From: Candidatus Woesearchaeota archaeon UBA489
GTDB taxonomy: Archaea; Nanobdellota; Nanobdellia; SCGC-AAA011-G17; UBA489
Assembly (NCBI GenBank): GCA_002505585.1
Contig: DAVM01000018.1
Location: 24,717-88,716 of the forward strand
Direction of reading: 5' to 3'
DNA: 64,000 bases
This document shows, piece by piece, positions 1,407 through 38,299 of the stretch. A program made the translations under genes and the position numbers. The notes under the pieces are model-generated. The model saw only the letters and a list, made by a program, of their open reading frames with translations, was not told the origin of the DNA and did not search any database. The first letter of the stretch is position 1. Each line of letters begins with the position of its first letter.

Positions 1407-2768
1407 ATGCGTTGTAAATTAAACAAAACAATGGGAAAAAAGACATTACTACACTCTTGCGACGAAGTAGAAGTGGAAACAAAAGATCAAAAGTATAAGG
1501 GATTATTAATGCCTAATAGTGATAGCAAAAAAATCATATTAAAATTAAAATCAGGATATAACGTAGGAATATTCAAAAAAGATGTAAAAAAAATGCAAGT
1601 AATAAAGAAAACAAAGAAGAATGCAAAAGCATGTGAAAAAAGCTTAGAACCAAAATTGAAGAAAATAAAACAGAAACATAATAACAAATTACCAACAATA
1701 AGCATCTTACACACAGGAGGAACCATAGCAAGCAAAATAGACTATGCAACAGGAGGAGTAAGCGCAAAATTCACACCAGAAGAGCTCCTAGACCTATTTC
1801 CAGAATTACGAAAAATAGCAAATATCAATTCTAGATTACTTAGCAATATGTGGAGTGGTGATATGCGATTTTACCACCATAATTACATAGCAAAAGAAAT
1901 TAAAAAAGAACTAGCAAAAGGAGTAGATGGAATAATAGTTACTCATGGCACAGATACTATGGGGTATACAGCAGCAGCGTTAAGCTTTATTCTAGAAGGA
2001 TTGTCAATGCCAATTCTCTTAGTAGGCAGTCAAAGAAGTAGTGATAGAGGTAGTAGTGATGCAGCCCTAAACTTACTATGTGCAGCACAATATATAACAA
2101 AAAGTGACTTTGGAGAAGTAGGCATTTGCATGCATGAAGATAGTAGTGACGAAAGTTGTGTTATATTACCAGCAACAAAAACAAGAAAAATGCACACAAG
2201 CAGAAGAGACACCTTCAGAGCAATAAGCACAGATCCTTATGCTACAGTAAGCAAACAAGGAACTATAAACCATTTCAATAAAAACTATACTAAGAAAGAC
2301 AAAAATAAAAAAGTAAAAATAAAACCTATTAAAGAAACACTCAAAATAGGCATGGTAAAATTCAGGCCAAACTTTTATGCGAAGGAACTAGAACATTACA
2401 AAACCTTTGACGGACTAATAATCGAAGGAACAGGATTAGGTAATGGACCAGTAGATGTCATAGATGAAGCAACAAAAGAACATAACAAAATATTGAAAAC
2501 TATTACACAATTATGCCAAAAACTACCAGTAGTAATGACATCACAAACTATTTATGGAAGAGTAAACATGAACGTGTACACCTACGGCAGAAAACTAAAA
2601 GAAGCAGGAGTACTAGGAAACTATAGCGATATGTTGCCAGAAACAGCATACATAAAACTAGCATGGTTATTAAGCAATTACCCAAAAAATAAAGTGAAAG
2701 AGATGGTGCAAGAGAATTTAAGGGGAGAGATTACTAAAAGAAGTTTACAGCACGAATTTACTGAATAG
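1407..2768 (+). CDS. gatD: Glu-tRNA(Gln) amidotransferase subunit D (asparaginase-like)
   Basis: 453 aa; GatD N-domain then L-asparaginase fold motifs ILHTGGTIAS, VTHGTDTMGYTAAAL, SQRSSDRGSSDAALN. Confidence 0.85.
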   Translation: MRCKLNKTMGKKTLLHSCDEVEVETKDQKYKGLLMPNSDSKKIILKLKSGYNVGIFKKDVKKMQVIKKTKKNAKACEKSLEPKLKKIKQKHNNKLPTISILHTGGTIASKIDYATGGVSAKFTPEELLDLFPELRKIANINSRLLSNMWSGDMRFYHHNYIAKEIKKELAKGVDGIIVTHGTDTMGYTAAALSFILEGLSMPILLVGSQRSSDRGSSDAALNLLCAAQYITKSDFGEVGICMHEDSSDESCVILPATKTRKMHTSRRDTFRAISTDPYATVSKQGTINHFNKNYTKKDKNKKVKIKPIKETLKIGMVKFRPNFYAKELEHYKTFDGLIIEGTGLGNGPVDVIDEATKEHNKILKTITQLCQKLPVVMTSQTIYGRVNMNVYTYGRKLKEAGVLGNYSDMLPETAYIKLAWLLSNYPKNKVKEMVQENLRGEITKRSLQHEFTE

Positions 2769-2864
2769 AACCAATTCACTACTTCTTATCTGAACAAAAA
2801 ACCAATACTTATATAAACAAAAAAGAGAGCTAAAAAAATAACATTATATGAAGAGGCAATATAC

Positions 2865-4010
2865 ATGGATAAATCAGCAAAATGGGTACTTTCAATCGTA
2901 GTACTTTTATTAATAGTAGTAGGACTCTTTGTAGCATTCTCACCAAGTCCTGAAGGAAAAGAAACAAGGCCAATAAAGTTAGGAGCAATCATGCCTTTAA
3001 GTGGTGACGCAGCAGCATACGGAATTCCCATACAACAAGCAACAGACTTAGCAATAAAAGAAATTAATGCAGCAGGTGGTGTTGATGGAAGAATGATTAA
3101 AGTTGTTTATGAAAATGGTGCATGTGCAGGAAAAGAAGCAACATCTGCAGCACAAAAATTAATTAATGTTGATAAAATTAAAGTAATCTTAGGAGGATTA
3201 TGTAGTGGAGAAACATTAGGAGCAGCACCAGTTGCAGAAGAAAATAAAGTAATCCTTTTCTCACCTGGATCAGGAAGTCCAGACATAACAAAATCAGGAG
3301 ACTACATCTTTAGAAACTTCCCATCAGATGCAACATCTGGAGGTAAAGTCGCACAAGCAGCAATAGACAATGGACATAAGAAAGTTGCAATTATTGCAGA
3401 ACAAACAGAATACGCACAAGCAGTAAAAGAAGTGTTTAAAACAACCTTTGAAGCAGCAGGTGGAGAAATATTAACAGATGAATCTTATGCATCAGACTCT
3501 AGTGACTTTAGAACACAACTAACAAAAATGAAAGCAACAAACCCTGATGGACTATATGTACTCTCACAAACACCAGCTAAATATGGATTAGTGTTGAAAC
3601 AAATTAGTGAACTAGGAATGAATCAACAAATTTATTCCAATGAGTTTTCAGCAGCAGAAGACATCTTGAAAGATTATAAAGAAGAGATAGAAGGAGCAAT
3701 CTATGCAGAACCCTCATTCGATGACAAAGCACCAAAAGCAAAAGAGCTCTTAGACAAAATACTAGCAGAACACGGAGAGCTCTCAGGAGCATTACCACCA
3801 GTATACTTTGCAACAGCATACGATGCAGTTTATCTCTTAAAAGATGCACTAGTGGAATGTGGAGAAGACACTGATTGTATTAAAAAATTCCTCTACGGAG
3901 TTACAGACAGAGCAGGAACAGCAGGAATGCTAACCATAGATGAAAACGGAGATGCAAGCTTTTCCTATGTCTTGAGAACAATTAAAGACGGAAAAGCAAT
4001 GGATGTGTAA
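2865..4010 (+). CDS. livK: Branched-chain/amino-acid ABC transporter substrate-binding protein (LivJ/K family), N-terminal membrane anchor
   Basis: 381 aa; N-terminal TM/signal segment, periplasmic-binding-protein type I signature KLGAIMPLSGDAAAYGIP...AINAAGGVDGR; first gene of liv-type operon. Confidence 0.8.
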   Translation: MDKSAKWVLSIVVLLLIVVGLFVAFSPSPEGKETRPIKLGAIMPLSGDAAAYGIPIQQATDLAIKEINAAGGVDGRMIKVVYENGACAGKEATSAAQKLINVDKIKVILGGLCSGETLGAAPVAEENKVILFSPGSGSPDITKSGDYIFRNFPSDATSGGKVAQAAIDNGHKKVAIIAEQTEYAQAVKEVFKTTFEAAGGEILTDESYASDSSDFRTQLTKMKATNPDGLYVLSQTPAKYGLVLKQISELGMNQQIYSNEFSAAEDILKDYKEEIEGAIYAEPSFDDKAPKAKELLDKILAEHGELSGALPPVYFATAYDAVYLLKDALVECGEDTDCIKKFLYGVTDRAGTAGMLTIDENGDASFSYVLRTIKDGKAMDV

Positions 4011-30863: not shown

Positions 30864-31493
30864 ATGGGAAAAACATTATCAGAACAAGAAGCAGAAAAAT
30901 TTCTAGAACAACAAGGATTCCCCATAGTAGACAGAGAACTAGTCAAAACAAGCAAACAAGCATTAGAAGTGGCAGAAGACATAGGTTATCCAATAGCAAT
31001 GAAAGTGTACTCACCACATATATTACATAAATCAGACATAGGAGGAGTACACCTAGACATAAGAAACGAAAAAGAAGTAGAAAAAATATTTAAAAAATTA
31101 ATGCAAATAAAACACGCAAAAGGAGTAATCATACAAGAATACACAAAAGGCATAAGCTTATTATTAGGACTCAAAGAAGACCCAAGCTTTGGCCATGCAC
31201 TAGTAGTAGGAAGTGGTGGAATATATACAGAAATCATGAAAGACGTAAGTTTTAGAGTATGTCCTATAACACCAAAAGACGCACAAGAAATGTTACAAGA
31301 ACTCAAAATGTATCCACTACTAGAAGGAGCAAGAGGGAAAAAGAAAATAAACAAAAAGAAACTATGCAAACTATTAGTAAAATTATCAACACTAGTTAAG
31401 AAATATCCAACAATAGCAGAACTAGACATAAACCCTTTGTTAGTAAACGAAAAAGAATCACTAATAGTAGACGCGAGAATAAAATTTAATTAA
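30864..31493 (+). CDS. ATP-grasp domain protein (ADP-forming acetyl-CoA synthetase beta-subunit-like)
   Basis: 209 aa; GYPIAMKVYSPHILHKSDIGGVHLDI...ALVVGSGGIYTEI...IAELDINPLLV typical of ACD/SCS-like ATP-grasp domains; no alpha-subunit partner in window. Confidence 0.55.
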   Translation: MGKTLSEQEAEKFLEQQGFPIVDRELVKTSKQALEVAEDIGYPIAMKVYSPHILHKSDIGGVHLDIRNEKEVEKIFKKLMQIKHAKGVIIQEYTKGISLLLGLKEDPSFGHALVVGSGGIYTEIMKDVSFRVCPITPKDAQEMLQELKMYPLLEGARGKKKINKKKLCKLLVKLSTLVKKYPTIAELDINPLLVNEKESLIVDARIKFN

Positions 31494-32523
31494 GCTTTAA
31501 TTTAGCAAACTCTTTTTGCATCTCAACAACAAACTTAGGAAACTCTTCCTTAGCAATAACAGCACCACAAGCACGAACATGACCACCACCATGTCCATTA
31601 ATAGTCTTAAGAACCTTTTCTAACATAGGAAGCACATCAACAGTTTTTCCACGAATACTAGTAACCATCTCATCATGCTCATTTTCACGAGCAATAATAA
31701 ACACATCCTTATTTAAACGATGAAGAAGTTCATTACTTAAACCACTACTAAAACTATTCTTTCCAGTAGGATAAGTAAAAATAAACATTCTTCCTTCCTC
31801 AACATGGTCTAAAGCATTCTTTAACAAAGCTTCATACTCTTTATTGATTTGTTCAAACTTCTTCCAAAGAAACTTTCCCTTAGAAGACTCTTGCCTAAGA
31901 ATTTCAAGAGGAGACTGAATTTTTTCTAAAACAGACACATTCTTTCTACTCTCAGAAGAAGAACCCTTCAAAATAAAATTAAACACTTTGATAAGTTTCC
32001 CGAACTCAGAATCAAACAAAATCTCAGGAGGAGTCTTTTTCTTATTAAACAACTCTTGATGCTCAAACTTATCCAAAAAATCAGGAATCTGCCAATCACC
32101 AATACAACCAACCAAAGCAATCCACAAATCTTGCTGCACAACTTGATAAACCCAAAAACTAGTAGAACGATTATCACCAGGAGTATTCACCATAGGATTA
32201 TAATACTTCACACCCAAACGCTTGACAGGCTTATGATGATCAATCCACAAAACAGGACACTTAGCACCATCAAGAACCTCTTGCGCAACATCAGGACGAT
32301 CAAGAAAAACAATTAAGTCAGGATCAATTTCTCTAATTTTACGTAAGTAAAACTCATGATCACCACTACGAGGCTTAGCAGGAATACCACGACCCTTTTG
32401 ATACTTACGTTTTAGTAAAAGAAAAGCACTTAAGCCGTCCTGATCATCATCATAAAAAAATAAAGGGTTTAAAGACTTCTCTAAATGGTCACGAATCTCT
32501 TGCAATTGTTCATCAGTTACCAT
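31486..32523 (-). CDS. DHH/DHHA1-family phosphoesterase (NrnA/RecJ-like)
   Basis: 345 aa; motif I FYDDDQDGLSA, motif III IDHHKP, DHHA1 GGGH (GHGGGHVRACG). Confidence 0.75.
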   Translation of the reverse strand: MVTDEQLQEIRDHLEKSLNPLFFYDDDQDGLSAFLLLKRKYQKGRGIPAKPRSGDHEFYLRKIREIDPDLIVFLDRPDVAQEVLDGAKCPVLWIDHHKPVKRLGVKYYNPMVNTPGDNRSTSFWVYQVVQQDLWIALVGCIGDWQIPDFLDKFEHQELFNKKKTPPEILFDSEFGKLIKVFNFILKGSSSESRKNVSVLEKIQSPLEILRQESSKGKFLWKKFEQINKEYEALLKNALDHVEEGRMFIFTYPTGKNSFSSGLSNELLHRLNKDVFIIARENEHDEMVTSIRGKTVDVLPMLEKVLKTINGHGGGHVRACGAVIAKEEFPKFVVEMQKEFAKLKLN

Positions 32524-32555
32524 AAAAAGAAATAATAAAGAAGTATTTATAAAAG

Positions 32556-32580
32556 CTCTTATTTAAAGAAAAAAAAGAAA
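32556..32580 (-). terminator. Oligo-T terminator-like element after small basic protein gene A (exact 25-nt copy also at 32787..32811)
   Basis: Plus-strand ctcttatttaaagaaaaaaaagaaa = minus-strand TTTCTTTTTTTTCTTTAAATAAGAG just after the stop codon; archaeal termination at T-runs. Confidence 0.4.
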
Positions 32581-32739
32581 CTATTTTTTCGTTCTTCTAC
32601 CAAGTATTTTTTGATTAGCAGAATGCTTCTTAGCAGCAAGGGCAATAGACCTTCCTCTTTGTCTTTGTCTAGCTTCAAGTGCTTTTTTAGAAGCTCCAAC
32701 TTCACGAGACCTTTGTGTTCTTGTTCGTCCTAAAGGCAT
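32581..32739 (-). CDS. Small Arg/Lys-rich protein, paralog A of a five-gene tandem family
   Basis: 52 aa MPLGRTRTQRSREVGASKKALEARQRQRGRSIALAAKKHSANQKILGRRTKK; GAGGAT SD 7 nt upstream, TATA-like TTATAAATA ~40 nt upstream, T-run downstream; not in ORF track (<60 aa). Confidence 0.6.
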   Translation of the reverse strand: MPLGRTRTQRSREVGASKKALEARQRQRGRSIALAAKKHSANQKILGRRTKK

Positions 32740-32786
32740 TTTTCACATCCTCACTATTTGATTTACTCTAAAATTATTTATAACAA

Positions 32787-32811
32787 CTCTTATTTAAAGA
32801 AAAAAAAGAAA
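32787..32811 (-). terminator. Oligo-T terminator-like element after small basic protein gene B (copy of 32556..32580)
   Basis: Identical 25-nt sequence ctcttatttaaagaaaaaaaagaaa. Confidence 0.4.
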
Positions 32812-32843
32812 AAAATTATCTTCTTTTGCTTCTTGCAGTTTGT

Positions 32844-33002
32844 TTATTTTCTTGGACCATCAGGCAATCTTTGACTCTCAGAATGAGCCCTATTACGTAT
32901 AATAGCTCTATCAACTCTTTTTTTAGCCCTCTTCTTTCTTGCATCTCCAGCAGCAGCAAGTCCACGAGTTTTTTGACTCCTAGTTTTAGCATAGTTACCC
33001 AT
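32844..33002 (-). CDS. Small Arg/Lys-rich protein, paralog B
   Basis: 52 aa MGNYAKTRSQKTRGLAAAGDARKKRAKKRVDRAIIRNRAHSESQRLPDGPRK; start chosen at Met preceded by AAAAAAGGAGGT SD (listed ORF 32844..33029 starts 9 codons earlier without SD). Confidence 0.6.
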   Translation of the reverse strand: MGNYAKTRSQKTRGLAAAGDARKKRAKKRVDRAIIRNRAHSESQRLPDGPRK

Positions 33003-33040
33003 GTTTTTTACCTCCTTTTTTGTTTGCAAAAATACAATTA

Positions 33041-33211
33041 TTAAGCTCTTATTCTCCTTTCTTCACTTGGAGGACGTCTTGTTCTTTTATTAGTTCTAGT
33101 TGCCTTACCTTTAGAACTTAAAGCACGTCTTAATCCAGCCTTACTCACTTTTTGAGTTCCTAAACTTCTTCCCATAACTCTTCTTTTTTGTTGTCCTCGG
33201 CTTCCAACCAT
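33041..33211 (-). CDS. Small Arg/Lys-rich protein, paralog C
   Basis: 56 aa MVGSRGQQKRRVMGRSLGTQKVSKAGLRRALSSKGKATRTNKRTRRPPSEERRIRA; AAAAAGGAGGA SD upstream. Confidence 0.55.
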   Translation of the reverse strand: MVGSRGQQKRRVMGRSLGTQKVSKAGLRRALSSKGKATRTNKRTRRPPSEERRIRA

Positions 33212-33266
33212 TTACTATTCCTCCTTTTTAAAAATAAAAAAATACTCTTTAATTTAAAAGAGCAAA

Positions 33267-33440
33267 TTATCTTTTAGCTCCAGCTCCTTTCTTAGATCCC
33301 TTTGCTCGAGGAACTTTTCTTATTCTTCCTGTAGAGAGAGTTCTATACCTACTAAATCCTGATTGTCCACGAGTAGACCCACTACCAGTAGCAGTTCTTC
33401 TTGTCTTTGGAGCTTTCCTTGGTGCTCTTCTTTGTCCCAT
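33267..33440 (-). CDS. Small Arg/Lys-rich protein, paralog D
   Basis: 57 aa MGQRRAPRKAPKTRRTATGSGSTRGQSGFSRYRTLSTGRIRKVPRAKGSKKGAGAKR; AAAAAGGAGGTG SD upstream. Confidence 0.55.
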   Translation of the reverse strand: MGQRRAPRKAPKTRRTATGSGSTRGQSGFSRYRTLSTGRIRKVPRAKGSKKGAGAKR

Positions 33441-33482
33441 ATTTTTACACCTCCTTTTTGTTTTTTTAAAAATTTAAAAATA

Positions 33483-33638
33483 TTAGATAGTTCTTCTTCT
33501 TCTCTTTCTTTCTACTCTTGCAGCTTTTGTTCCAGCTAATTGTCTTTTATCAGCATCTCGTTTAACCATTCTACGCCCTTGACTAGGTCGTGTTTTTTCT
33601 AGTGATCCTACTTTTCTCTTAACACGTGCTCTTGACAT
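33483..33638 (-). CDS. Small Arg/Lys-rich protein, paralog E
   Basis: 51 aa MSRARVKRKVGSLEKTRPSQGRRMVKRDADKRQLAGTKAARVERKRRRRTI; AAGAGGAGGGA SD upstream. Confidence 0.55.
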   Translation of the reverse strand: MSRARVKRKVGSLEKTRPSQGRRMVKRDADKRQLAGTKAARVERKRRRRTI

Positions 33639-33842
33639 GTTCTATCCCTCCTCTTATTTCTTTTTTTTAATAATAATAATATATAGCTCTAAGCCAATCC
33701 CTAAGTAGTTTTTAAGCACTTTTATCTATTTAAACTTTTAGGTAGTATATGCATTATTTTTACTCCATACACATTCAATCGCAATGTTTTTATAGCAACA
33801 CCCCAATAAAACAAAGGTAGGGGGAAACAAAAAAGAGGTACT

Positions 33843-34679
33843 ATGGGAATATATTTATTCTGGAAAAGAATACAAGCCAGCTTTCTTTGTCAATGGGATG
33901 AATTCTGGACTTTCAAAATAGATCTCTGGATCAACATTCTGAATACCATATTAGAAGTAGCCATGTGGTTTTTCCTAGCAAAAATAGTAGATCCAGCAAC
34001 CTTAGGTTATGCAGAAGTAGGGTATTTACCTTTTGTCTTAGTAGGAAGCGTAGCAATATTTTTTGTAGATAATGTTTATAGCAACTTCACAGAAAAATTT
34101 AGTAGTGATAGAGACAGTGGCATCTACAAAATGAGCTATCTCTCAAACATGGGAATCTTACAATATTTCTTTATTAACTTTTTAACCTCAATAGTCTTTG
34201 ATATCATAACAGTATTCATACCAATGATAGCAACTTTCTCCATATTACTCCAGTTTGTAACAGAAAACACCATATTCTATTTAGGCATGAGTAATGTAGT
34301 AACCATCTTAGTAGCCTTAGCAATCTTTATCTTAGGAAACTTAGGATTCCAACTCATGACAGTAGGAAGCACCCTTTTCTTGAAAGAAGGAGACCCAGTA
34401 GGATTCTTCATGGAGCAATTCAACAGACTCTTCTCAGGACAACTCTTTCCAACAACATTCCTACCAAACTTCTTATTATTCTTACCAAAAATACTACCAG
34501 CAGCATACATCATTTTAATCTGGAGAGAAACACTCTTCAAGAACCAAACCATCTTTGACCCAGGAGTAATAAACTTAGTCATAGCAGGATTTGTAGTCAA
34601 CATCATAATCTTCTTCATAGGCATGTATGTCTTTTATTACGGAATAAATAGAGCGAAAATAGAAGGAAGGTGGTTCTGA
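33843..34679 (+). CDS. ABC-2 type transporter permease
   Basis: 278 aa, ~6 TM helices; stop TGA immediately abuts GTG start of the ATPase gene (translational coupling). Confidence 0.6.
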   Translation: MGIYLFWKRIQASFLCQWDEFWTFKIDLWINILNTILEVAMWFFLAKIVDPATLGYAEVGYLPFVLVGSVAIFFVDNVYSNFTEKFSSDRDSGIYKMSYLSNMGILQYFFINFLTSIVFDIITVFIPMIATFSILLQFVTENTIFYLGMSNVVTILVALAIFILGNLGFQLMTVGSTLFLKEGDPVGFFMEQFNRLFSGQLFPTTFLPNFLLFLPKILPAAYIILIWRETLFKNQTIFDPGVINLVIAGFVVNIIIFFIGMYVFYYGINRAKIEGRWF

Positions 34680-36272
34680 GTGAAGAAAAACATTATAGAA
34701 GTAAACAACCTTTACAAAGAATACTACCAATACAAAGTTTTTAAGAAAGGAAAATTATTAACAAAAGCACTAAACAACATCTCTTTCAAAGTAAAAGAAG
34801 GAGACTTCTTCGGATTACTAGGACAAAATGGAGCAGGAAAAACAACACTCCTAAAATTATTAACAACAAACTTACAAAAAACAGCAGGAAGCATACATAT
34901 AGACGGGATAAACATAGAAGAAAACATTAGGAAAGTAAAACCAAATATATCATGGATGTTTGGAGTAGACTATGAAGGATATGGATGGAGTAGTATAGAA
35001 AGAAATTTGAAACTAGCAGCCTACTATTTAGGCATGAAACAAAACCAAGCAGAAAAAAGAATAAAAGAATTATTAGAATACTTTGGATTGTACCATAAAA
35101 GGAAATTAGATGTATGGAGAATGAGTGCAGGAATGCAAGCAAAATACAGCCTAGCAGCAGCAATGCTCAAAAAACCAAAAATATTATTCTTAGACGAACC
35201 ACTCCTAGGATTAGATGTACCAGCAAAAGAAACACTAAGAAACTTTTTAGTAGAACTAAACAAAGAAGGAACAACAATAGTCTACACAGACCACCAACTC
35301 CAAGAAATGGAGAAAGTGTGTAATAACTTAATAATCATAGAACAAGGAAACAAAATGTATGATGGAAGCCTAGATAACTTAAAACAACAATACAGAGATG
35401 CACAAGTACTAGAATTAACCTGCCAATCACCAACAATAAATAAAATATTGTTAAGTTTAACAAAAAAAGTGAAGACAGTAACTGACTACGAAATAATAGA
35501 CAGCAACGAAGGAATACACCAAGTAAAAGTTTATACAACAATAGACAGCAAAAAAGCATTATTACCTGTAGGAAATTATTTGAAAAGAAACAAAGTAATC
35601 ATAGAAACATTAAACGCAGGATTACTCAGTTTAGAAGACGTATTCAAAAAATTCTTGAAAAAGAATAATCATCACAAAACAAAAAAACAATTACAAGGAT
35701 TTCACAAAACAAAAGAACAACCACTACAAAGACATACAACTTATTTAAAACACAAACATCATGATGTAAGAGAAGCAGCATGTCAACTCCTGCATCAAAA
35801 GAAACAACAACAAGTAGAAAGAGTACTCAGAAATATGAGCAAAATGAGCAAACCCATGCAAATAAGCAGTTTAAATGTCATAGGAAACACTAGAAACATA
35901 GGGTTATTGCAAAGAATAAAAAAACATTTACAAACAAGAGACAAAGACATACAAGTACACTTAACCATAGCACAAGCAAAAATAGGAGATACAGGAACAA
36001 CAACAAAATTATTACACTACTTATTAACAGAAAAAACAACACAATTGTTACTAACACACCTACCACACTTTCACAAAAATGTATTGAATATTTTAAGCAA
36101 GTTACTCCATAAATTAAACAAACATAACTTAAAATATTTAATCTACCAAATAGAAAAAAACAAACACACACAAGCACTATACAATGCACTAGACATCAAA
36201 TACAAAGAACAAAGAAACAGAAAAACACATATGAAACAAACAAAACTAATCATACATGGAAAAGTTAGATAA
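34680..36272 (+). CDS. ABC transporter ATP-binding protein with C-terminal HEAT-like (PBS-lyase type) repeat extension
   Basis: 530 aa, GTG start; Walker A LGQNGAGKTTLLKLL, signature MSAGMQAKYSL, Walker B ILFLDEP; residues ~330-530 are His/Lys/Gln-rich with HDVREAACQLL and KDIQVHLTIAQAKIGDTGT..LLHYL repeats (D..VR..A..aLg.iG pattern). Confidence 0.75.
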   Translation: MKKNIIEVNNLYKEYYQYKVFKKGKLLTKALNNISFKVKEGDFFGLLGQNGAGKTTLLKLLTTNLQKTAGSIHIDGINIEENIRKVKPNISWMFGVDYEGYGWSSIERNLKLAAYYLGMKQNQAEKRIKELLEYFGLYHKRKLDVWRMSAGMQAKYSLAAAMLKKPKILFLDEPLLGLDVPAKETLRNFLVELNKEGTTIVYTDHQLQEMEKVCNNLIIIEQGNKMYDGSLDNLKQQYRDAQVLELTCQSPTINKILLSLTKKVKTVTDYEIIDSNEGIHQVKVYTTIDSKKALLPVGNYLKRNKVIIETLNAGLLSLEDVFKKFLKKNNHHKTKKQLQGFHKTKEQPLQRHTTYLKHKHHDVREAACQLLHQKKQQQVERVLRNMSKMSKPMQISSLNVIGNTRNIGLLQRIKKHLQTRDKDIQVHLTIAQAKIGDTGTTTKLLHYLLTEKTTQLLLTHLPHFHKNVLNILSKLLHKLNKHNLKYLIYQIEKNKHTQALYNALDIKYKEQRNRKTHMKQTKLIIHGKVR

Positions 36273-36274
36273 AA

Positions 36275-36844
36275 TTATCTGCCCTGTCTCTTATGAGCTT
36301 TTTGACTAGGGCGATGTTTCTCAACACCCTTACCCTTTTGGTGTAATCCTCTAGAACGTTTACCAGAAGAAGTTAACCCTCTAAACACACGACCAGTATT
36401 CTTCCCATTAGCAACCCAACCAGAACGTTTATCTTTCTTAATAGAAGGATGAGCACGATCAATAAGAATACATTCATACCAATAATGTAATCCATCCTTA
36501 GCAACATAATAACTATTCAACACTTCACAATTCAAGAACTTTTTATTAGCACGCTCTTCAGCAATAGTCTGATAACTCTTAGCAACAACCTTCTTTCTAC
36601 GCATAGTTTTAGAACGACGACCAGCTTTCATTTGTTCACGCATACGACCACCACGCTTCAAACGAACACGAACCAAAATGTAACCAAGTTTAGCTTTATA
36701 CCCCAAAGAACGAGCACGATCTAAACGAGTAGCATGATCAATACGAATAACAACAGGCTCACGACGCCACTTAATTAAGCGAGATCTCAAAATAGCAGGA
36801 TCTAACTTTTTCCAAGTTTCTCTCAAATGTTTCATCAATGCCAT
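36275..36844 (-). CDS. rpl15e: Ribosomal protein eL15
   Basis: 189 aa; MALMKHLRETWKK...LRSRLIKWRREPVVIRIDHATRLDRARSLGYKAKLGYILVRVR matches L15e. Confidence 0.85.
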   Translation of the reverse strand: MALMKHLRETWKKLDPAILRSRLIKWRREPVVIRIDHATRLDRARSLGYKAKLGYILVRVRLKRGGRMREQMKAGRRSKTMRRKKVVAKSYQTIAEERANKKFLNCEVLNSYYVAKDGLHYWYECILIDRAHPSIKKDKRSGWVANGKNTGRVFRGLTSSGKRSRGLHQKGKGVEKHRPSQKAHKRQGR

Positions 36845-37465: not shown

Positions 37466-38299
37466 GTGGTTATGACAAATAAACTAGCATTCTTTGAAGG
37501 AAAGGAAATAAGAAAAACATGGCATAATGAAGAGTGGTATTTCTCTATTATTGATGTAGTTGAAGTTTTAACAGGTTCCTCAAACCCCAGGAATTACTGG
37601 AGTATGCTCAAAAAAAGAGAGTCAGATCATGAAGTTGAGTTGTCCACATTTTGTGTACGACTGAAATTAGCTTCTGCTGATGGAAAATCCTACTTAACTG
37701 ACTGTGCAAATACTGAATCTTTATTCAGAATCATCCAATCAATCCCCTCCAAAAAAGCAGAACCTTTCAAACTCTGGCTTGCTAAAGTTGGTTATGAACG
37801 TATTCAAGAAATTGAAAATCCTGAACTAGCACAAGAACGTATGAAACAACTCTATGAACAAAAGGGTTATTCTAAAGAATGGATTGAAAAAAGATTAAGA
37901 GGTATTGCAATAAGACAAGAACTAACAGACGAATGGAAAAATAGAAAAGTAGATGAAAAGAGAGAATATGCAATACTTACAAATGAAATAGCTAAAGCAA
38001 CTTTTGGAAAAACTGTAGAAGACTACAAAAAACATAAACAACTCAACAAAGAAAATTTAAGAGATCACATGAATGATCTAGAGCTCATCTTTACAATGTT
38101 AGGGGAAAAGGTAACAACAGAAATCACAAAGAATAAAAATGCGCAAGGATTCCAAGAAAATAAACAAACTGCAAGAGAAGGAGGAACAGTTGCAGGAAAC
38201 GCTCGTCGTGAAGCAGAAGAAAAAATAGGCAAAACAGTAGTCTCAGATGAAAACTATTTGAGCACATCAGAAAAAGAAAAAAGAAAGCGATTAACATGA
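37466..38299 (+). CDS. Bro-N domain protein (phage antirepressor / DinD-like)
   Basis: 277 aa; NKLAFFEGKEIRKTWHNEEWYFSIIDVVEVLTGSSNPRNYW...AEPFKLWLAKVGYERIQE matches Bro-N (F.FEG.EIR....dGEpWFva.DVaeaLG..NPr...; pF..Wl...V); C-terminal K/E-rich region. Confidence 0.55.
   Translation: MVMTNKLAFFEGKEIRKTWHNEEWYFSIIDVVEVLTGSSNPRNYWSMLKKRESDHEVELSTFCVRLKLASADGKSYLTDCANTESLFRIIQSIPSKKAEPFKLWLAKVGYERIQEIENPELAQERMKQLYEQKGYSKEWIEKRLRGIAIRQELTDEWKNRKVDEKREYAILTNEIAKATFGKTVEDYKKHKQLNKENLRDHMNDLELIFTMLGEKVTTEITKNKNAQGFQENKQTAREGGTVAGNARREAEEKIGKTVVSDENYLSTSEKEKRKRLT

Follow-up and report, generated by a model that had tools for sequence, protein, structure and literature searches.

A cluster of five tiny genes, designated A to E, fills the gap between a DHH phosphoesterase gene and a divergently oriented transporter gene pair in a 64,000-nucleotide (nt) stretch (the window) of contig DAVM01000018.1 of Candidatus Woesearchaeota archaeon UBA489. 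It is a clade-specific cluster with fast turnover, coding for hydrophilic, arginine-rich polycations that form one long helix or are disordered. Nucleic-acid binding is the most plausible predicted activity of the products. The more explicit proposal that they are intracellular binders of polyanions (RNA, ribosomes, DNA), which act mostly by electrostatics and whose copy number determines dosage, has in our estimation about an even chance of being correct.

The genes are consecutive open reading frames (ORFs) with ATG starts, all located on the minus strand without mutual overlap and together spanning positions 32581–33638 of the window. Their head-to-tail order between the DHH gene and the transporter and the product lengths of 51–57 amino acids (aa), as proposed in a preceding inspection of the DNA (the sequence-only reading), were confirmed. 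The genes and their Shine-Dalgarno (SD) sequences are as follows.

33483–33638, minus strand: gene A, ATG ORF, 51 aa, MSRARVKRKV...RKRRRRTI, Arg+Lys 41%, net charge +17
33647–33651, minus strand: SD sequence GGAGG of gene A, at −13
33267–33440, minus strand: gene B, ATG ORF, 57 aa, rich in Arg and Gly/Ser/Thr, with F29 and Y32
33450–33459, minus strand: SD sequence AAAAAGGAGG of gene B, one of three copies in the window
33041–33211, minus strand: gene C, ATG ORF, 56 aa
33220–33229, minus strand: SD sequence AAAAAGGAGG of gene C, one of three copies in the window
32844–33002, minus strand: gene D, ATG ORF, 52 aa, paralogue of E
33011–33020, minus strand: SD sequence AAAAAGGAGG of gene D, one of three copies in the window
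32581–32739, minus strand: gene E, ATG ORF, 52 aa, paralogue of D, with a weaker SD sequence (GAGG)

A first-order Markov simulation based on the composition of the region yielded a mean of 0.13 chance ORFs of at least 50 aa in this region, and five were never reached in 2000 trials; the region actually contains six ORFs of this size, five of which are preceded by an SD sequence. Since five SD-led ORFs are found where 0.13 ORFs are expected, and since related genomes carry arrays in the same gap (see below), A to E are real, SD-led protein-coding genes. In A to D, GGAGG begins 13–14 nt upstream of the ATG and leaves a gap of 8–9 nt, whereas gene E possesses GAGG but no full GGAGG, so that the near-perfect SD sequence ascribed to each of the five genes applies to four of them. 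The sequence AAAAAGGAGG occurs exactly three times across the window, always within the array (B, C and D). Elsewhere in the window, GGAGG at SD spacing precedes no credible gene start; the other hits associated with long ORFs were either internal to larger ORFs or involved an ORF that leaves the end of the window. The exceptional position of these signals, already noticed in the sequence-only reading, is thus borne out. Counted over the whole window, GGAGG shows a strong strand asymmetry, with 52 occurrences on the plus and 12 on the minus strand, and the AT skew is positive nearly throughout.

Gene D is contained in the mechanical ORF list and in the ENA assembly with a TTG start (32844–33029, 61 aa). 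This start is probably wrong, the likely true one being the ATG at 33002, 8 nt past AAAAAGGAGG. A wrong start in the ORF list had been pointed out before, correctly, for a gene then called B, which corresponds to gene D of the present nomenclature. Gene prediction in the Tara, ENA and Logan assemblies also recovered gene A, and all five proteins were found verbatim in Tara Oceans mesopelagic assemblies of the 0.1–0.22 μm fraction. Alternative-frame or antisense ORFs of 58–72 aa within the array, located at 32816–32992 (minus strand), 32826–33044 (plus strand) and 33363–33539 (plus strand), are not regarded as genes; none of them has an SD sequence, and they are by-products of the purine-rich, stop-poor composition.

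The transcription signals are less regular than had been envisaged, namely for five monocistronic units under separate promoters. A TTATAAATA box, reported as preceding each gene, is present only 44 nt upstream of E and 29 nt upstream of the DHH gene. The spacers upstream of B, C and D, 38–55 nt in length, contain T-runs and no clear TATA box; within the 42–55-nt spacers of B and C there are A/T runs alone. Over the whole array the spacers measure 38–104 nt, and in the array of a related genome, L008, 19–33 nt. The following elements were assigned.

33727–33734, minus strand: TATA-like box TTTAAATA, 96 nt upstream of gene A, candidate promoter for an A–D or A–E transcript with an SD-bearing leader
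32772–32811, minus strand: copy 2 of a 40-nt direct repeat, between D and E; a T-run, then TTTAAATA and TTATAAATA, candidate D terminator and E promoter
32541–32580, minus strand: copy 1 of this repeat, in the gap separating E from the DHH gene; a terminator T-run as well as, for the DHH gene, the TATA box TTATAAATA at −29

Spacers of 38–55 nt, and of 19–33 nt in L008, are too short to accommodate promoters, and we therefore infer that transcription proceeds from one or two SD-dependent operons, comprising either A–D followed by E, or A–E with leaky T-run terminators. Runs of at least five T follow each of the five stop codons, in agreement with the oligo-T terminators described earlier; a consensus scan for bacterial-type intrinsic terminators detected none, T-runs only. 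The DHH gene, with its own TATA box, appears to be leaderless.

The two copies of the 40-nt repeat are 93% identical and include the 25-nt exact terminator copy recorded in the sequence-only reading, which is real. Across the units of D and E, the DNA aligns with 71% identity. Given this identity and the shared repeat, D and E are products of a tandem duplication, the duplicated unit of which included the downstream T-run/TATA segment. The cluster expands by local tandem duplication, D/E being the visible case. Downstream of the D stop codon the DNA still aligns to the C-terminal codons of E, and D therefore seems to have been shortened through an indel and a new stop.

Relatedness among the remaining products is another matter. 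When compared with shuffled sequences, the similarity of D and E reached z = 4.2–4.4, whereas the other nine pairs among A to E gave z < 1, and in an alignment of 13 proteins from the clade of the window Met1 was the sole conserved column. A single paralogous family comprising A to E was rejected in view of the shuffles, of phmmer searches against 1050 decoys and of the alignment without further conserved columns. The description of the five as clearly related, diverged paralogs is accordingly demonstrable for D and E alone.

To place the array in its genomic context, the neighbouring genes have to be considered.

31486–32523, minus strand: DHH/DHHA1 phosphoesterase gene (RecJ/NrnA-like), conserved downstream neighbour in the same orientation as the array
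33843–34679, plus strand: membrane permease gene (278 aa), upstream of and divergent from the array; an ABC-2 role is suggested by the context
34680–36272, plus strand: gene of a DrrA-type ATP-binding cassette (ABC) ATPase, directly after the permease gene
36275–36844, minus strand: L15e gene, 2.6 kb from the array

Pfam and NCBIfam give no match for the permease. The nearest named relatives of the DHH protein are from metagenome-assembled genomes of Woesearchaeota and Nanoarchaeota. With this protein as an anchor, the syntenic loci of relatives were fetched, and seven further Woesearchaeota-type genomes were found to possess arrays of 2 to ~7 tiny, basic, SD-led genes in the same gap between the permease and DHH genes. 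Three of these genomes (L008, L009 and L022), with DHH proteins 63–72% identical to that of the window, form a clade with it and show the gene order L15e / ABC ATPase / permease / small genes / DHH / ATP-grasp / transglutaminase / ProRS. The four genomes of a sister clade (L004, L019, L020 and L021) have DHH proteins that are 53–56% identical to those of the window clade and 77–81% identical to each other.

L008: five genes, 57–63 aa
L009 (909,730-bp contig): two genes, 56 and 57 aa
L022 (Hainich groundwater): four genes, 45–52 aa
L004, L019 and L021: ~5 genes each, 31–47 aa, same gap
L020: ~7 genes, 31–47 aa, same gap

An SD sequence of the AAGGAGG type is present 6–9 nt upstream of the ATG in nearly all array members. 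In L020, an NCBI metagenome-assembled genome (GCA_016177265.1, JACOVP010000056.1), positions 2330–3500 constitute a 1.17-kb gap without gene calls, yet contain ~7 tiny SD-led ORFs with homologues in L004 and L021; the entire array escaped standard annotation. In L022, the permease gene and the array are separated by a gene (1891–2328, plus strand) for a CARDB-like protein of 145 aa that has a hydrophobic segment at its N-terminus. More distant relatives (L001, L002, L005, L025 and L026; DHH identity 43–51%) lack an array at the locus, and no SD-led small basic ORF was present across the ~35 kb fetched. The permease/ATPase pair adjoins the array divergently in all eight array-bearing genomes. 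In L026 (1594–3526), L15e is directly followed by DHH, and both the ABC pair and the array are missing; on account of this arrangement, the pair and the array look like one block that was inserted or lost between L15e and DHH.

The small proteins change much faster than their neighbours. Orthologues within the sister clade, recognizable by phmmer above 1050 composition-matched decoys, share 40–57% identity, as compared to 77–81% for DHH and 84–87% for the permease, corresponding to a sequence turnover about three times that of the neighbours. Two pairs had a ratio of non-synonymous to synonymous substitution rates (dN/dS) of ~0.24, and one pair had 0.5; saturation was reached in the remaining pairs, in which the proportion of non-synonymous differences was below that of synonymous ones (pN < pS). 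Since non-synonymous changes are fewer than synonymous ones, the syntenic small ORFs of the sister clade are translated genes under purifying selection. These orthologues share the motif D-x-G-G-[LIV]-x-[AS]-R-[DE] (alignments A5/A6). A D+E profile matched the sister-clade alignment A5 weakly in hhalign (P = 0.00068, probability 27%), and A, B and C did not match the motif family. Between the window and L008, L009 or L022, no relationship of the small proteins was recognizable at a DHH identity of 63–72%. The genes of the window itself offer no polymorphism from which dN/dS could be derived: apart from a 1-nt insertion in a T-run, the array is 100% identical in all Tara, ENA, JGI and Logan contigs that contain it. 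An apparent difference in L15e between the window and L003 turned out to be another start-codon call on identical DNA.

These data bear on the explanation that the ORFs are young and near-neutral, or act in cis as upstream ORFs, for example by tuning DHH expression, having been born in a purine-rich, stop-poor spacer. The purine-rich coding strand with its overlapping open frames on both strands, the AGA-rich codon usage, the empty homologue searches, and the constant position of the array immediately upstream of, and co-oriented with, the DHH gene would all be in line with such an origin. However, it does not account for the dN/dS of ~0.24, for the strong SD sequences kept before nearly every member in eight genomes, or for an Arg-rich composition kept against a Lys-rich background; moreover, the DHH gene is apparently leaderless, is equipped with a TATA box and is set apart from the array by a T-run. 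We consider this explanation very unlikely.

What is shared by the array proteins is their composition. Arg and Lys together make up 33–41% of the residues of A to E (rather than the 35–45% stated before), with Arg contributing 19–27%, and the isoelectric point (pI) of the array proteins is ~12. As compared to the 37 large ORFs of the window, the array is strongly enriched in Arg (22% versus 3.2%), while Lys is similar (12.7% versus 10.8%); the corresponding R/K ratios are 1.74 for the array, 0.30 for the large ORFs and 1.12 for L15e. Cys is absent from all five proteins, as had been noted. Aromatic residues, said to be absent as well, do occur, namely F and Y in B and Y in D. In the seven other arrays, Arg accounts for 12–22% (3.5–4% in neighbours), the net charge is +0.17 to +0.35 per residue (~0 in neighbours), and hydrophobic residues amount to 15–20% (35–41% in neighbours). 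In 35 of 38 proteins, the initial Met is followed by a small residue (V, G, P, A, S or T). Comparison of the arrays shows that selection maintains the composition, i.e., high Arg content, high net charge and low hydrophobicity, and not the sequence. AlphaFold2 predicted for E, using the D+E alignment, a single long helix (residues 7–51) with a predicted local distance difference test score (pLDDT) of 87, and for B mainly coil with a small hairpin at 32–42 (pLDDT 70). Because neither model has a globular core, both proteins are predicted to need a partner.

Database searches did not connect the proteins to any known family. A to E gave nothing relevant, and no ribosomal family, against Pfam and NCBIfam at E ≤ 10, and none of the 35 array proteins from eight genomes matched a ribosomal family of Pfam. 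Among all chains of the PDB, including solved ribosomes, phmmer returned nothing for B, D and E at E ≤ 10; the best matches of A (eL24, E = 9.8) and C (basic tail of uS13, E = 0.5) were non-significant. The sequence-only reading had likewise found no match to a named ribosomal family, which these searches corroborate; the faint resemblance to S30e and L34 that it mentioned was not recovered in Pfam, NCBIfam or the PDB. An 'MP[ST][HY]G' N-terminus in some relatives resembles that of archaeal eS30, but none of the 35 proteins received support for such an identity from these three libraries, and an identity with L34 or L39e was similarly unsupported. A word-index homologue search with E returned E alone, an exhaustive hmmsearch of 1.84 billion protein representatives with the D+E profile returned D and E alone, and a profile of the sister-clade motif family retrieved its own members only. 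PHROGs yielded scattered hits, the best at E = 0.018, with a different unknown family for each protein, and IMG/VR contained no relatives of A or B. A viral origin was rejected in view of these results. A role in a defence system was discarded as well, as the peptides had no PADLOC hit, and integron cassettes were dismissed since there are no attC-like inverted repeats between the genes and no integrase among the neighbours, which are core genes. In the literature, no description of such arrays was found. The suggestion of an undescribed family is thus right insofar as no library searched contained a match; yet the five proteins are not one family, only D and E being related.

Lineage-specific ribosomal proteins or hibernation factors, which would fill rRNA pockets as do bTHX, bS22, bL37, aL45–47, Sra and RMF, have to be considered in this context. 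The array proteins resemble the small basic ribosomal and ribosome-associated proteins (bL34, bTHX, bS22, eL41, aL45–47, Sra, RMF) in their size of 30–60 aa, pI of 11–12 and Arg enrichment, in their R/K ratio, and in lacking a globular core in favour of a single helix or an extended chain; the composition of A to E lies beside that of bL34, and the single-helix model of E is reminiscent of eL41-type proteins. Strong translation signals and an L15e gene 2.6 kb away would also suit a ribosomal role. On the other hand, no ribosomal family or chain of a solved ribosome was matched, more distant relatives have no array at this site, and tandem copies that vary from 2 to ~7 among close relatives, with sequences unrecognizable at 63–72% DHH identity, are unlike stoichiometric components. 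By the same token, the array differs from eS30, eL39, eL41/eS32, eL40 and eL34 in not being single-copy and in lacking recognizable orthology. Codon usage differs, too: AGA represents 38 of the 59 Arg codons of the array and 291 of 546 in the bulk genes, while in L15e 19 of 28 Arg codons are CGT. Taken together, we judge a ribosomal or hibernation role decidedly unlikely.

The main alternative explanation regards the ABC-2 pair and the array as one module, with the polycationic peptides being secreted without a signal peptide and acting on a host or on competitors. The ATPase is of the DrrA type, and its lower-ranked matches are ABC families for lantibiotic protection, bacteriocin export and export of phenol-soluble modulins (PSMs; PmtA). 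The invariable adjacency of pair and array, and their joint absence from L026 where L15e directly precedes DHH, are what a module would show, and tandem arrays, copy-number variation and fast turnover are generally known to be typical of antimicrobial or effector peptides. Leaderless bacteriocins (aureocin A70, enterocin L50) and the PSM/Pmt system in particular combine tiny tandem genes, which encode cationic products without leader peptides, with an adjacent ABC-2/DrrA-type exporter. However, the link to the exporter is positional only, and the co-occurrence may be plain clade synteny, because L15e, ATP-grasp, transglutaminase and ProRS are equally conserved. The array products are too hydrophilic and only weakly amphipathic: hydrophobic residues (ILVFMWY) constitute 11–18% of A to E, and the maximal hydrophobic moment is 0.33–0.52, as compared to 32–50% and 0.56–0.89 for membrane-active reference peptides (leaderless bacteriocins, PSMs, cecropin and LL-37). 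By their hydrophobicity and hydrophobic moment, A to E adjoin bL34, Sra and RMF and lie a long way from cecropin, LL-37, PSM and lacticin Q. Neither a PADLOC nor a bacteriocin family was matched by the peptides. The ATPase carries a basic, His/Lys/Gln-rich C-terminal extension of 200 residues (~331–530, net charge +29) without a family match, the length of which is kept in relatives; being basic itself, this tail does not provide a surface for binding polycations. Secretion of the peptides, which would then act through binding to the envelope, non-lytic antimicrobial action or symbiont–host interaction, therefore appears unlikely.

Returning to intracellular polyanion binders, the polycations would remain in the cell, bind rRNA, ribosomes, other RNA and/or DNA, and serve as counter-ions, condensers or chaperones, largely by means of bulk electrostatics; the copy number of 2 to ~7 per genome would set the dosage. 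Several observations weigh against this proposal. The constant position of the array beside a divergent DrrA-type ABC-2 exporter, and the lack of both in L026, fit export equally well. Conservation of composition only is also expected for other functions of disordered proteins. The members from the sister clade are less basic, with a net charge of +0.17 to +0.21 per residue and ~9–11% acidic residues. Finally, the AGA-dominated Arg codons, unlike those of L15e, do not support expression at the level of ribosomal proteins; the earlier designation of the products as abundant was based on SD strength alone, and the choice of Arg codons is mildly contrary to it.

Protamines, protamine-like proteins and Hc1/Hc2 of Chlamydia are comparable as small polycations with conserved composition and fast sequence change, and by analogy to such condensers, compaction of nucleic acids would be plausible in very small cells, the source being a 0.1–0.22 μm fraction. 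In contrast to the array proteins with 33–41% Arg+Lys, true protamines have more than about 50%, and the Cys and Arg-tract motifs of protamines are missing from the array; Protamine_3 of Pfam was hit by one of the 35 array proteins with E = 2.5. The array also resembles the minor ssp genes of Bacillus, which are many tiny genes with strong ribosome-binding sites, T-rich terminators and abundant nucleic-acid-associated products. Unlike the array, however, these are dispersed and monocistronic, occur in another domain of life and show no homology, and the small acid-soluble spore proteins (SASPs) are not polycationic. As a tentative extension, this fast-evolving battery of 2 to ~7 Arg-rich micro-proteins at a fixed locus of ultra-small Woesearchaeota-type archaea might supply the main counter-ions or condensers of nucleic acids, a protamine-like prokaryotic solution in which selection would retain charge and Arg content while sequence and copy number drift, or might represent new, lineage-variable components of the ribosome; we regard this as possible but doubtful.

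As to the remainder of the window, it contains the archaeal genes L15e, Nre and TFE and has a G+C content of ~33%. An Rfam scan identified three tRNAs only and no other non-coding RNA. A Bro-N domain protein of 277 aa (37466–38299, plus strand) shows a full-length match (E = 1.6e-124) to PDC-S13, a candidate-defence family of PADLOC, a finding worth mentioning for a DPANN archaeon.

Small basic proteins of prokaryotes are a familiar kind of thing. Unusual features of the present locus are the fixed position of a cluster whose fast-evolving genes vary in number, the strong SD sequences in a window whose other gene starts lack GGAGG, and a seven-fold enrichment of Arg over a Lys-rich background. 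Such genes are easily missed and are part of the large unexplained fraction of DPANN genomes. If the products are abundant polycations, they would bear on how RNA and DNA are neutralized and packed in cells smaller than 0.2 μm, and on the occurrence of lineage-specific proteins in DPANN ribosomes; if they are exported, they would be archaeal peptides of a new, hydrophilic class that may take part in contact between symbiont and host. Under either reading, the locus represents a clean natural case of selection on composition and dosage, not on sequence.

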